This document shows, piece by piece, positions 30,165 through 33,454 of a DNA stretch of 33,454 bases. A model generated the notes under the pieces. It had not been told where the DNA came from. It did no database searches and saw only the letters and a list, made by a program, of their open reading frames with translations. Each line of letters starts with the position of its first letter. Positions within the stretch are counted from its first letter, which is position 1. The stretch is from Thermoanaerobaculia bacterium (lineage in GTDB: Bacteria; Acidobacteriota; Thermoanaerobaculia; Multivoradales; UBA5704). Where the stretch lies: the NCBI GenBank assembly GCA_044226625.1, contig JBGAGQ010000069.1:1-33454 (forward strand), given 5' to 3'. A program made the position numbers and the translations under genes.

Positions 30165-30395
30165 GGCTTGGGGCGGGCTCATCCGCCGGCCGTCGCTCGC
30201 TCGTAGACCCGCCGGAGCAGGAGTCCCGCGTTGCACGCCTGTCACATCCGCGTCGTCGCAACGCCCGCACCCGCTTCTATCGTCTTGCCACCTCGCCAGG
30301 AGCGTTCGCGGAGGCCTCGCGCGGCCGGCGCCCGGCGACGTCTCGATCTGCAACTCTGTGTTTCGGAAAGAAACGCTACGAAAAGGAGAGTCGGA

Positions 30396-31715
30396 ATGCG
30401 CAGGAAATCTCTGTTCCGGGCCGCCGTGCTCGCGCTCGTCGCGATCTCGGCCGCCGGCGCGGTCTCGGCCCAGGTCACGGGCCTGTTCTACAAAGAGGTC
30501 GAGCGGGACGGCAGGATCTATGTCTTCAACACGCCCGAGAGGCTCAAGTCCTTCGAGGACTCGGGTGGCGACATCGGCACGGCGATCACCCTCCTCGGGC
30601 GCGGCGAGCACGGCGAAACGCTGGTCGGCGAGAACGAGACCGCGATCGACCTCTATCTCTTCCGGCACAACCTGGAAGCCTACGAGCGTCCGACGCCGAA
30701 ACCGGCGGCGCCCGCCGCCTATCCCTCCTCGAAATTCGGCATCCGGGTCTACGCCGACGTCTCGTCGAAAGAAAACAAGGACGAGGGGACGGGGATCAAG
30801 AGCAACGACAGCGGCGTCGGCGTCGACGTGAAGCGCACCTACTTCACCTTCTCCCACGACTTCGACGCCAAGTGGAGCGCCGTCTTCCAGTCCGACATCG
30901 GCGACCAGGGCGCGCGCCGTTACGACGTCTTCGTCAAGAAGGCGTACGTGCAGTACAAGGTCAACCCGAACGCCCTCTTCCGCCTCGGCGCGGCCGACAC
31001 GCCGTGGATTCCGTTCGTCGAAGGGATCTACGGCCTGCGCTACGTCGAGCAGACGATCACCGACCGCCTGAGCTTCGGCGCCTCGGGCGACTGGGGCCTC
31101 CACTTTGCCGGCAAGGCCCTGGGCGATTCGTTGAACGTCGCCCTGTCGGCGCAGAACGGCCGCGGCTTCTCGAACCCGTCGCGCAGCAAGAACGTCGATT
31201 TCGAAGGGCGCATTTCGTACGCTCCCGTCAAGGGCCTGACGCTCGCCCTCGGCGGCTACAGCGGCAAGCGCGGCCTCGAGACCGACGCGGCGCCGGCCAA
31301 GCACACGGCCACCCGCACCGACGCCCTGGTCGCCTACGGCAACGATAAGTTCAAGATCGGCGGCGAGTGGTTCGAGGCGACGAACTGGAACACCGTGACC
31401 AGCGCCACGAAAGACAAGTCGGACGGCTACTCGGTGTGGGGCTCGTTCGCCGCCACCTCGGCGATCACCGTCTTCGGCAAGTTCGAGGAGGCGAAGCCGA
31501 GCAAGGACCTGAAGCCGCTGCTCAAGGAGAACTACTACAACCTCGGCGTCCAGTACCGCTACAACAAGGCGTTCGCCGGAGCGCTGGTCTACAAGTACGA
31601 CGAGGTGAAGGGCGGTACGGTGAGCACCGGCAACGGCGGCACCGTCGGTTCGACCCGCGCGGGCGCCAAGGGCAAGTTCAACGAGATCGGCATCTACACG
31701 GTGTACGACTTCTAA
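30396..31715 (+). CDS. Outer-membrane porin (OprO/OprP-like beta-barrel) with an extra N-terminal domain
   Basis: SD AAGGAG; Sec signal ending AVSA; VKRTYF, VKKAYVQY, NGRGFSNP alternating beta-strands; C-terminal YDF beta-signal. Confidence 0.75.
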   Translation: MRRKSLFRAAVLALVAISAAGAVSAQVTGLFYKEVERDGRIYVFNTPERLKSFEDSGGDIGTAITLLGRGEHGETLVGENETAIDLYLFRHNLEAYERPTPKPAAPAAYPSSKFGIRVYADVSSKENKDEGTGIKSNDSGVGVDVKRTYFTFSHDFDAKWSAVFQSDIGDQGARRYDVFVKKAYVQYKVNPNALFRLGAADTPWIPFVEGIYGLRYVEQTITDRLSFGASGDWGLHFAGKALGDSLNVALSAQNGRGFSNPSRSKNVDFEGRISYAPVKGLTLALGGYSGKRGLETDAAPAKHTATRTDALVAYGNDKFKIGGEWFEATNWNTVTSATKDKSDGYSVWGSFAATSAITVFGKFEEAKPSKDLKPLLKENYYNLGVQYRYNKAFAGALVYKYDEVKGGTVSTGNGGTVGSTRAGAKGKFNEIGIYTVYDF

Positions 31716-31743
31716 GACAGGGAAAGCCAGTGCAGGGCGCAAG

Positions 31744-31774
31744 GGGGAGGCCGGCCGGCCTCCCCTCTTTCTTT
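31744..31774 (+). terminator. Rho-independent terminator after the porin
   Basis: GGGGAGGCCG-gc-CGGCCTCCCC followed by TCTTTCTTT. Confidence 0.85.
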
Positions 31775-31805
31775 GCGGCGAGAAAAGGGGATCCCCCGAA
31801 CCAGA

Positions 31806-32099
31806 TCAGTGGTGTTCTGTACCAGCCCACCGGTGATTCGGGCCGGCTCAGTGGTGTTCTGGTCCAGACCAGTGGTGATCCGGCCCAGACCAGGGGAGAT
31901 CGGCACCAGACCAAGGGTGATCCGAGCCAGTCCACTGGTGTTCTGGTCCAGTCGAGCGGTGATCTGGTCCAACCCAGTGGTGTTCTGGTCCAGCCCAGTG
32001 GTGATCTGGTCCAGCCCAGTGGTGATGGGGTCCAGCCCAGTGGTGATGGGGTCCAGCCCAGTGGTGTTCTGTGCCAGCCCACTGGTGAGCGGGCATCGG
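31806..32099. repeat. Degenerate 21-bp tandem array, 14 units, consensus CCAGTGGTGWTCTGGTCCAGC
   Basis: Units in exact register from 31806 to 32099 (e.g. CCAGTGGTGTTCTGGTCCAGC, CCAGTGGTGATGGGGTCCAGC); one minus-strand frame reads (LDQITTG)n. Confidence 0.92.
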
Positions 32100-32325
32100 C
32101 GAGAGATGATCGCGACCGGAGCACCGCTTGGGTACGCTACTCCAGCACTCTCCGAGAAAACGATAGTTTTTGCCCGACGATTTTTCGAGGCGCCCTCCGA
32201 AGTCCGCCGGGGCGTCTTCCTTAGGGCGACGCCGAGCCGAAAAGCGGGCGGCTTCCCTCCGGACGTGGAGCCCAATGTCGCCGCGGTAGGGGTTATTTCC
32301 CCCTCCGGCGGCTCTAAGGATCTCC

Positions 32326-32730
32326 TCAGCCCAACCTCCCCGGCGGCGGCGTGGCGTGCCAGGTGAGCGCGGCCGCCAGCTCAGCGAGGGCGGCATCCGC
32401 CCTTCGGCGGGCCAGCTCGCCGAGCGCCGTGGCGCGATCCGCGATCGGCTGGCCCTGGCGGTCGGCCGCGCGGGGCGGGAGGCCAGAGGCCGCGACGGCT
32501 TCCGGTCCCGCAGCGTCGAGCAGGCGGGAGAGGGTCTGCGGGCGCGGGGTCCGCCGGCCCGATTCGTAGTCCGAGATCTGCTTGGGATGGACGTCCGCCT
32601 CGTGCGCGAGGCGCTCCTGTGTCCAGCCGAGCGCCGCGCGGAGCCGGCGCAGCCGGGCGGCGAGGGAGTCCACGCCCTCCGTGCCTCCGCGTTTCGAAGA
32701 GGTCTCCCGCCGAGAAGTGCCGTGCGTCAT
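32326..32730 (-). CDS. XRE-family helix-turn-helix transcriptional regulator
   Basis: LRRLRAALGWTQERLAHEADVHPKQISDYESGRRTP HTH_3 signature; SD GGAGGG. Confidence 0.88.
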   Translation of the reverse strand: MTHGTSRRETSSKRGGTEGVDSLAARLRRLRAALGWTQERLAHEADVHPKQISDYESGRRTPRPQTLSRLLDAAGPEAVAASGLPPRAADRQGQPIADRATALGELARRRADAALAELAAALTWHATPPPGRLG

Positions 32731-32740
32731 GATCCCTCCA

Positions 32741-32754
32741 CCGGATTAATCAGG
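32741..32754. promoter_or_regulatory. Putative operator palindrome CCgGATTAATCaGG between the divergent XRE and peptide genes
   Basis: 12 of 14 positions symmetric, with an AT-rich core in a very GC-rich spacer. Confidence 0.4.
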
Positions 32755-32823
32755 CGCCGCCCGTCGCGGCGCCCCCTCGGAGGCCGGCCCCCCGGTCTCC
32801 CGGACCCGAACAGGAGGATCGCC

Positions 32824-33201
32824 GTGTACCCCAAGCCACGCCGCCTCGCCGTCCCTTTCGCGCTCGCCGCCGTCCTTTTCCTCTTTCTCGGTTTCGCCGC
32901 CACGCCGGCCGCCCACGCCGCGCCGGGCGGAGCGCCCTTCGGGCTCGGCGACTGGCTCGGTGTCCTGCTCCGCATCTGGGCGCCGGAAGGGTGCGGCCTC
33001 GATCCGGTCGGCCGGTGCGGTCCGGCTGGGCCGCCCCCTAACTCCGGCTGCACGATCGACCCGAGCGGCCACTGCCGCGAGACCTCGGCGTTCCTTCCGG
33101 AAGGCTGCGGCATCGATCCGCACGGCCGGTGCACGCCAGCCGCGGCACCCCAGAAGGACGAGGGTTGCGGCCTCGATCCGCACGGCAAGTGCGTTCCATA
33201 G
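32824..33201 (+). CDS. Secreted 125-aa peptide precursor with four [E/S]GC[G/T][L/I]DPxG[R/H/K]C repeats
   Basis: SD AGGAGG 6 nt before GTG 32824; Sec signal ending AHA; cores EGCGLDPVGRC, SGCTIDPSGHC, EGCGIDPHGRC, EGCGLDPHGKC. Confidence 0.85.
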   Translation: MYPKPRRLAVPFALAAVLFLFLGFAATPAAHAAPGGAPFGLGDWLGVLLRIWAPEGCGLDPVGRCGPAGPPPNSGCTIDPSGHCRETSAFLPEGCGIDPHGRCTPAAAPQKDEGCGLDPHGKCVP

Positions 33202-33229
33202 CACGTGCCCACTGTCTAGAAGAATGCAT

Positions 33230-33454
33230 TCAAGCTTCCGCTCCGCCGCGCGGACGTGCCGTGGCGAGGGCCTGGGCAGCCCGCTGTGCGAGCGCGACGG
33301 TCGCCCGCTCCTCCTCTACTGCCGCGAGGAACAGGCGCACTGTGGCTAGTTCTTCACGCTCTATTCCTAGAGCGCGGATGAGGGCGGCCGACTGCCGTGC
33401 GAGTGTTCGCGTTTCGGCGGATCGGCCGTCCGCGAGATAGACCACCGCGAGGTC
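33230..33454 (-). CDS. C-terminal fragment of an alpha-helical TPR-like protein (continues beyond the window)
   Basis: Frame open to the window edge: DLAVVYLADGRSAETRTLARQSAALIRALGIEREELATVRLFLAAVEEERATVALAQR; LAxxYxxxG..A TPR pattern. Confidence 0.65.
   Translation of the reverse strand, partial: DLAVVYLADGRSAETRTLARQSAALIRALGIEREELATVRLFLAAVEEERATVALAQRAAQALATARPRGGAEA

Follow-up and report, generated by a model that had tools for sequence, protein, structure and literature searches.

A secreted repeat-core peptide gene linked to a helix-turn-helix/tetratricopeptide-repeat receptor-type gene: a candidate peptide-signalling cassette in Thermoanaerobaculia

The window analysed here is a stretch of 33,454 nt that makes up an entire contig (C69) of a 6.6-Mb draft genome (67.7% GC, 133 contigs) of a Thermoanaerobaculia bacterium. 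It ends in a compact cassette of three genes: a short XRE-family regulator, a divergently transcribed gene for a small secreted-type peptide with four cysteine loops, and, convergent with the latter, the 3' end of a receptor-type gene from a family that joins an N-terminal helix-turn-helix (HTH) to tetratricopeptide repeats (TPR). Peptide genes and receptor genes of these two families are linked far beyond chance, both in this genome and in its relatives. The cassette may be one of many paralogous copies of a peptide/receptor signalling module that works like the RRNPP systems, here in a diderm phylum, a reading that our analysis gives about an even chance of being right.

The peptide family and its linkage to receptor genes

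In the precursor encoded in the window, a signal-type N-terminus is followed by an amphipathic stretch that contains Trp and closes with I-W-A-P-E-G, then by four nine-residue Cys loops with the consensus C-x-[IL]-D-P-x-G-x-C, and by a two-residue tail. Precursor hydrophobicity reaches a maximum of 2.76 at residue 8, followed by an A-H-A cleavage motif read by eye, and a signal-type N-terminal segment is present in all 24 aligned precursors. No Pfam or NCBIfam family matched the window precursor. Its homologues are annotated at source as "hypothetical protein", and its neighbours in the Protein Atlas are unnamed Acidobacteriota "hypothetical protein" clusters (0.88-0.90, low recognition), to be taken as a lead only. 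From a library of 1.84 billion representatives of 50% identity clusters, the peptide profile retrieved 2089 clusters at E<=0.001, of which 806 remain when the cut-off is set to E<=1e-10. Among 146 of the 150 listed representatives (the other four belong to another set), 143 possess at least one Cys loop, three loops being the mode (87/146), and 144 have a hydrophobic N-terminus; in 120 of the 143, the last loop stops 2-4 residues short of the C-terminus. Precursors are ~100-130 aa in length with one to five Cys-closed DPxG loops, and the invariant residues of the family are D, P, G and both C of the core, plus one Trp of the leader. Altogether, the peptide family is unannotated, large and lineage-restricted. 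Two deviating forms were also seen: at locus L017 (1483-1818, + strand) the rings have eight residues, C-x-I-D-P-x-G-C, and the C5 cassette of this genome (C5:42300-46400, locus L001) encodes a degenerate peptide with a single loop. In the C5 stretch, no frame passes the filter on third-position GC content that coding frames elsewhere pass, which suggests an atypical composition.

The disulfide-closed DPxG loops proposed as ligands by the initial annotation of this DNA are found as four closed-loop motifs in the window precursor, but they are not universal, since sister cassettes in the same genome carry linear x-[IL]-D-P-x-G cores without cysteines, such as GAAIDPHG and GAYIDPNG. These Cys-free sister peptides (Table 1) have a signal peptide, a Trp helix and linear cores, some of which lie at the very C-terminus (contig C125; locus L021), and the genome also contains a differently spaced variant, CIDPNGxxxxC. 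Genes for the Cys-free and the differently spaced variants immediately precede those of other receptor paralogs and share their strand. In addition, contigs C101, C124 and C58 carry C-IDPN(G/N)-xxx(x)-C variants. Because the sister cassettes have Cys-free linear cores, we consider [IL]-D-P-x-G to be the conserved element and the disulfide a subfamily trait. At locus L021 (1486-1818, + strand), from another family of the order, the peptide gene lies upstream of the receptor gene and co-directional with it, and the encoded peptide has ...DMDPNG at its C-terminus.

Six-frame translation of the whole genome yields nine matches to C..DP.G.C, all of them in five small secreted-peptide genes on contigs C5, C13, C46, C57 and C69. 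Each of the five has a signal-type N-terminus and a Trp helix, and each is convergent with a gene of the receptor family across a gap of 20-89 bp. When this genome was searched with the peptide profile at E<=0.1, 14 of 15 matches adjoined a family gene, the stretches around family genes making up 1.8% of the genome. Counted from the receptor side, 14 of the 23 family genes (22 full-length members and the one cut by the end of the window) have an adjacent match at this threshold. Motif inspection adds three more, one of them (on C8) with a weak profile match of E 0.85, so that a peptide accompanies 17 of 23.

The linkage of such peptides to TPR/XRE genes, put forward in the initial annotation, proved to be conserved across genomes in both directions. 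A receptor gene is adjacent in all 20 sampled peptide loci, of which one comes from this genome and the remaining 19 are the best-matching loci of as many other genomes. The two genes are convergent in 19 and co-directional in one. In the reverse count, for which loci were retrieved with the receptor alignment, a peptide gene lies in the 1.5-kb flanks of 70 of 79 receptor loci from named assemblies, all of which are Thermoanaerobaculia/Acidobacteriota metagenome-assembled genomes (MAGs); the source names of the homologues agree with this range. Sixty-two of these 70 are convergent within 400 bp, four are convergent at 415-472 bp and four are divergent, and three of the nine loci with no peptide match have a downstream flank of at most 60 bp. 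The cassettes follow a one-peptide-per-receptor rule. The peptide profile matched 27 of 41 relatives. Within the taxonomic family of this bacterium, 23 of 24 genomes were matched; congeneric genomes gave 9-32 matches each and a single further genome of that family gave 38, figures that do not represent copy numbers. Among 301 sampled genomes of the phylum, scored at a stricter threshold and with fewer candidates per genome, matches occurred only in this genome and one congener.

In genome G022, two peptide genes (C14:53433-53726 and 55556-55849) share a strand and are separated by 2.1 kb. Cassettes can thus be arranged in tandem, in which case a full-length paralog "divergent" from one peptide gene is plausibly the receptor of the next cassette. 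Another conserved gene (Table 1) is transcribed divergently from the receptor gene, on its 5' side; the product is helical, measures ~130-290 aa and matches no Pfam family. The gene is present in six of nine loci with long flanks and in the window would fall past the contig end. With a narrow profile it was found upstream of and divergent from the receptor in only three of the 79 MAG loci, a fourth match lying inside the receptor gene, and on four contigs of this genome. Its likeness to the receptor family is not significant (hhalign probability 1.5%), which lends no support to its being a TPR-only paralog.

The receptor family, the short XRE gene and the control region

The 74 visible residues of the cut gene correspond to the C-terminal end of a family of paralogs, at profile positions 396-465 of 468. 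They share 57-65% identity with the C-termini of full-length relatives and give a sub-threshold match to TPR_12 (0.0044). The HTH-TPR family, ~480 aa in length, has 22 full-length members in this genome (about 445-560 aa) in addition to the window fragment. HTH_31/HTH_3 was found at the N-terminus in four of four paralogs tested, followed by ~400 aa with weak TPR matches. The closest full-length relative of the cut gene comes from a genome of the same genus, with 60.6% identity over 71 aa (residues 421-491 of a 503-codon frame). Its match to the family profile runs from position 10 to 465, the HTH of the window XRE aligns with its residues 19-53, and its cassette reproduces the three-gene order of the window, the short divergent XRE included. 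Whether the TPR-like protein has an N-terminal HTH, a question raised in the initial annotation, is thus answered in the affirmative by homology to this relative and the four paralogs, although the window fragment itself lacks that region. On the other contigs of the assembly, neither an overlapping contig end nor near-identical DNA was found that would supply the rest of the cut gene. Receptor homologues are annotated at source as "helix-turn-helix transcriptional regulator" or "tetratricopeptide repeat protein". Among 118 family members there is no consistent hydrophobic or membrane segment: 98 fall below threshold, and the other 20 show marginal hydrophobic stretches scattered over the protein, with acidic residues in 19 of them. 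The receptor is therefore most likely cytoplasmic.

An AlphaFold2 model was computed from the 118-sequence alignment for the C57 paralog, not for the cut gene of the window, with a pLDDT of 92.9 and a pTM of 0.81. The model comprises an HTH (residues 7-58), two linker helices, the second of which is long (93-137), and helix pairs from ~141 to 479. Structural similarity search using Foldseek placed the TPR domains of LGN/Pins and Phr-bound Rap on top (6hc2, LGN, at rank 1; 4gyo at rank 4). A second structural aligner, applied to the C57 TPR residues ~150-476, returned matches over about 290-300 residues, with Z scores of 22.0 for LGN (4wnd, 5a6c), 21.3-21.9 for the phage phi3T Rap with pheromone (8rsv 21.9, 8rsu 21.7), 21.6 for Rap with competence and sporulation factor (4gyo), 20.9 for aspartyl phosphate phosphatase F with inhibitory peptide (4i9c), 20.3 for apo NprR (5dbk), 19.8 for NprR with NprX (4gpk) and about 19.5 for TPR subunits of the APC/C. 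As modelled, the receptor has the fold of a peptide-binding-type TPR superhelix, which is compatible with Rap/NprR and not specific for them. Co-folding of C57 receptor residues 95-482 with residues 25-93 of the cognate precursor, both entered as alignments and without controls, gave a score of 0.01 and a mark of 0.32, which speaks neither for nor against binding.

The short XRE of the window scores above the cut-offs of HTH_31 (6.2e-14, 52.5 bits; cut-off 27) and HTH_3 (1.3e-13, 51.2 bits; cut-off 23). Its sequence, an HTH with about 60 aa in addition, can be aligned with the HTH and linker of the receptor family, and its identity to a relative's full-length receptor (residues 13-118) is 40.5% over 111 aa. 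From this alignment it appears to be a truncated paralog that lacks the TPR sensor. The position divergent from the peptide gene is taken in other cassettes by a family member, either full-length or cut to profile positions ~12-238, and the 134-aa XRE of the window is the shortest form of it. A defence or toxin-antitoxin module was rejected: the PADLOC matches to capH, RmrA and a control protein cover the HTH only, with none for the peptide, and NCBIfam antitoxin models applied to the window cassette scored far under their cut-offs.

The divergent control region contains two inverted repeats. One is an AT-centred imperfect palindrome, CCGGATTAATCAGG (32741-32754), located about 10 nt upstream of the XRE start codon. 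Alignment of the spacers of the window and its four closest cassettes revealed one conserved block beside the XRE start, with diverging flanks. This block is the palindrome ACCCG(A/T)TTAA(A/T)CGGGT, imperfect in the window (Table 1), and at the same position the closest cassettes of four other genomes carry the perfect palindromes ACCCGATTAATCGGGT or ACCCGTTTAAACGGGT. Moreover, the pattern CCNGWTTAAWCNGG has a single occurrence in the 6.6-Mb genome, at the window spacer. Judged from sequence, the palindrome is a candidate cassette-specific operator, possibly overlapping a promoter. The second, GC-rich inverted repeat was rejected as an operator, as it sits in a stretch missing from three of the four closest cassettes.

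A signalling reading and its rivals

Compared with known systems, the cassette is closest to NprR-NprX in architecture, and to Rap-Phr in structure score and in the many cassettes per genome. Like NprR-NprX, it combines an N-terminal XRE-type HTH and a long TPR superhelix with a neighbouring small propeptide gene that has a signal peptide, and the modelled TPR domain aligns with both NprR structures over ~290 residues, a fold match that is not specific. Unlike NprR-NprX, it occurs in the diderm Acidobacteriota rather than in Bacillota, shows no sequence-family membership, has a longer-format precursor of Cys-closed DPxG loops and carries an extra sensor-less XRE paralog encoded divergently. 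The NprX gene lies downstream of NprR and co-directional with it, whereas the peptide gene of the cassette is convergent.

Pheromone-bound Rap is among the best structural matches of the C57 model, and Rap-Phr likewise forms many paralogous cassettes per genome. Rap proteins are devoid of an HTH and have response regulators as their targets. According to the titles of the structure entries, Phr peptides are linear 5-6-mers; they belong to another phylum. In systems of the Rgg-SHP/PrgX type, an HTH and helical-repeat receptor of ~285 aa is encoded adjacent to a small peptide gene, divergent or convergent, and the peptides leave via a dedicated transporter, not Sec; Rgg/PrgX were not among the structural matches listed for the C57 model, which is no evidence of absence. 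LGN/Pins of animals, the top structural match, is also a TPR superhelix solved with partner peptides or proteins, as the entry titles state, but it is a eukaryotic scaffold without an HTH, and no descent relation is implied. Inhibitors of the Bowman-Birk/SFTI type have a nine-residue ring with one disulfide, repeated in tandem heads; the cassette differs from them in the sequence pattern of its loops and in having Cys-free sister peptides. Passages of a survey of RRNPP systems (PMC9765709) describe Rap-Phr propeptides with several peptide copies.

With the RRNPP systems the cassette shares a TPR-type sensor in a predicted cytoplasmic receptor, an N-terminal HTH (in the paralogs and the closest relative) and an adjacent small gene for an exported-type propeptide. 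It has no sequence homology to the known receptor families and lies outside Bacillota, and for these two reasons we file it as working like RRNPP and not as a member. Full-text searches of the literature returned no paper whose title or abstract describes such a cassette. The pertinent passages of three RRNPP surveys (PMC10075063, PMC9765709, PMC12700828) make no mention of Acidobacteria, and their titles or abstracts frame the systems as Gram-positive or Firmicutes. At the level of these titles, abstracts and passages, the literature agrees with the statement of the initial annotation that no characterised system has this form.

On the signalling reading, we infer the following course of export, processing, disulfide formation, re-import, peptide binding and regulation. 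The 125-aa precursor would be exported by Sec, and its leader and Pro/Ala-rich linkers would be cut off to release up to four similar units of about 9-11 residues, C-x-[IL]-D-P-x-G-x-C, which are probably disulfide-closed in the periplasm. The units would build up outside or in the periplasm, re-enter the cell and bind to the cytoplasmic HTH-TPR protein encoded by the convergent gene, in the concave groove of its TPR superhelix. With or against the short XRE, a possible sensor-less competitor, this protein would act at the palindrome in the 93-bp divergent promoter region, and the outcome would be autoregulation of the peptide and XRE genes, plus regulation of further targets. A gene for an OppA/DppA-type binding protein is present in the genome, which is necessary, and not sufficient, for re-import. 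Each cassette of the genome might serve as a separate channel. A more far-reaching version, whose chances we put somewhat below even, is that each cell runs tens of private peptide channels (this genome has five Cys-type cassettes and 22 receptor paralogs) as an independently evolved, RRNPP-like form of quorum sensing, with a cyclic class of pheromone that is linear in sister cassettes and a sensor-less XRE antagonist.

Several points weigh against signalling. The RRNPP-analogous cassette suggested by the initial annotation stands as far as the HTH on the receptor family, the linkage and the Rap/NprR-compatible fold are concerned, but the fold equally matches generic TPR proteins and does not discriminate, because LGN and APC/C score like Rap and NprR. 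No RRNPP-specific sequence family for the receptors was found in Pfam/NCBIfam, where only generic HTH_x and sub-threshold TPR_x/TPR_MalT models matched, and the receptor profile run against PDB sequences gave generic TPR/XRE matches, RapH (5.4e-4) being hit over one TPR stretch only. Convergent gene order is unusual for Rap, NprR, PlcR and AimR cassettes. The cassette includes no gene for a transporter or protease. A disulfide-closed loop would meet a reducing cytoplasm. Sec export in a diderm delivers a peptide only as far as the periplasm, and to act as a shared signal it would still have to pass the outer membrane.

The evolution of the cores cuts both ways. At the four variable ring positions, likeness is 0.45 within a precursor versus 0.20 between precursors, a level reached in none of 2000 label shuffles. 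Within-precursor likeness is also seen in the linkers (for example at loci L014 and L023). Since the linkers are repeated too, and recent tandem duplication explains much, the likeness of the cores is not strong evidence for ligand selection. In one orthologous group from four species of the genus, leaders are 73-88% identical and core regions 46-81%, and the receptors of that group (three species aligned) are about 66-81% identical in all parts; between orthologous cassettes, loop copy number shifts from two to three. Cores less conserved than leaders fit pherotype drift and equally an arms-race effector. A 97%-identical strain variant (32303-33204) has 27 differences, ten of them in the leader-coding part, with seven resulting amino-acid changes (codons read by eye), and none in the 228 nt coding for the cores. 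The strain-variant and between-species patterns pull opposite ways, and both are small samples.

The main rival holds that the HTH-TPR protein and the short XRE are dedicated regulators of a secreted effector, such as a multi-headed protease inhibitor, a peptide with an antimicrobial or competitive role, or one that binds metal or sits on the surface, and that the TPR domain senses something else. We judge this rather unlikely, though it deserves serious weight. A predicted-exported, cysteine-rich peptide with small closed loops has a common format of extracellular effectors, loop positions and copy number change fast between species, the nine-residue ring equals the Bowman-Birk/SFTI loop in size with a hydrophobic residue at ring position 3, and re-entry of the peptide into the cell is conjectural. 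By contrast, a receptor-type regulator for nearly every peptide gene (17/23 here; 70/79 MAG loci) exceeds the needs of simple regulation, and the cassette has no conserved genes for immunity, export or modification. Moreover, Cys-free sisters with short linear [IL]-D-P-x-G cores fit a folded inhibitor or defensin poorly, and the sole Pfam hint among the five Cys-type precursors of this genome is a sub-threshold match of one precursor to Defensin_5 (E 0.019).

As a minor rival, which seems to us improbable, the TPR domain would bind the unexported precursor or its Trp-rich leader helix, and the cassette would report secretion capacity or titrate the regulator. This would remove the need for re-import and for a cytoplasmic disulfide, the receptor has no export signal, and the leader (signal peptide plus W-x-x-W-L ... 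L-W helix) is the part best conserved between orthologues; however, the invariant residues lie in the cores (D, P, G and two C) with the exception of one leader Trp, the strain variant has seven amino-acid changes in the leader and none in the cores, and we know of no precedent for sensing of an unexported precursor. Chance adjacency or a spurious small open reading frame (ORF), conceivable where high-GC DNA holds many long spurious frames, is refuted by the 2089 representative clusters of conserved architecture and by linkage kept in 20/20 and 70/79 loci, and runs counter to the AGGAGG that precedes the start codon and to a strain variant that keeps the frame.

Peptide signals with TPR receptors are treated as a hallmark of Bacillota. 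If the signalling reading is true, peptide quorum sensing would not be confined to monoderms, and the cassette would offer an entry point to the almost unstudied cell-cell communication of Acidobacteria, here an uncultured lineage of soil and bioreactors. It would also pose the problem of the route by which a peptide that is periplasmic and possibly cyclic gets to a receptor in the cytoplasm. Signalling is testable with synthetic peptides and purified receptor domains, without culturing. Even if the peptides are effectors, they are a new secreted family, built of Cys-loop repeats and provided with regulators of its own.

Layout of the locus and neighbouring features

The arrangement described in the initial annotation, with an XRE gene divergent from a small secreted-peptide gene across a 93-bp spacer that contains a palindrome, a convergent gene 28 bp beyond the peptide gene and only the last 74 aa of the TPR-like protein visible, agrees with the coordinates read from the sequence (Table 1).

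Table 1. Features of the window cassette and of related genes elsewhere. Positions without a prefix refer to the window; prefixes denote other contigs (C) or sampled loci (L).
Feature	Position	Strand	Basis or remark
Short XRE-family regulator	32326-32730	-	134-aa ORF, Pfam HTH
Divergent control region between XRE and peptide genes, 93 bp	32731-32823		Sequence
Candidate operator palindrome ACCGGATTAATCAGGC	32740-32755		Inverted repeat, conserved in relatives
GC-rich inverted repeat GGCGCCGC-N5-GCGGCGCC	32753-32773		Probably incidental
Shine-Dalgarno-like AGGAGG	32812-32817	+	6 nt 5' of GTG start
Peptide precursor gene, 125 aa	32824-33201	+	GTG start 32824, stop 33199-33201
Predicted Sec signal peptide, residues 1-32	32824-32919	+	Hydrophobic segment; putative cleavage site
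Core 1, CGLDPVGRC	32992-33018	+	Motif scan
Core 2, CTIDPSGHC	33049-33075	+	Motif scan
Core 3, CGIDPHGRC	33106-33132	+	Motif scan
Core 4, CGLDPHGKC, then V-P and stop codon	33166-33192	+	Motif scan
Intergenic gap between peptide and receptor genes, 28 bp	33202-33229		Sequence
3' end (74 codons and stop) of convergent HTH-TPR receptor-type gene	33230-33454	-	Open frame leaving the contig
Further helical gene (C57)	L004:2258-3127	+	Relatives at L033, L034, L036, L037
Further helical gene (C46)	L003:2152-2934	-	Relatives as above
Cys-free sister peptide	C125:67426-67950		This genome
Cys-free sister peptide	C76:29418-29945		This genome
Cys-free sister peptide	C81:70657-71505		This genome
Cys-free sister peptide	C86:49992-50420		This genome
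Cys-free sister peptide	C39:4833-5255		This genome
Cys-free sister peptide	C51:21906-22301		This genome
Cys-free sister peptide	C8:61211-61531		This genome

The GGAG at the Shine-Dalgarno position is kept in the closest cassettes of other genomes. Assemblies from two sequencing studies, of which one may be the source of the window itself, back the contiguity of the locus: a public contig with zero differences spans 32444-33342, the 97%-identical contig from the other study (run X2) spans 32303-33204, and contigs in both public runs reach beyond 33454. Among the public runs listed as carrying the locus, none is of RNA. Scans of 32200-33454 for consensus sigma-70 promoters and terminators found nothing, which is of little weight for Acidobacteria, and a search of 31000-33454 against Rfam gave no match at E<=0.1.

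A 21-bp tandem array (31807-32088, 13.4 copies, consensus CAGTGGTGATCTGGTCCAGCC) lies some 240 bp past the 3' end of the XRE gene and is crossed by long open frames of 148-285 aa in five of six frames. It was rejected as a part of the cassette: of ten similar arrays across the genome, only two have a receptor-family gene within 2.5 kb, and it therefore appears to be a dispersed repeat. Elsewhere in the window, a 494-aa ORF (30231-31715, + strand) with high third-position GC ends in ...IGIYTVYDF and looks, by eye, like an outer-membrane beta-barrel or a porin-type protein.

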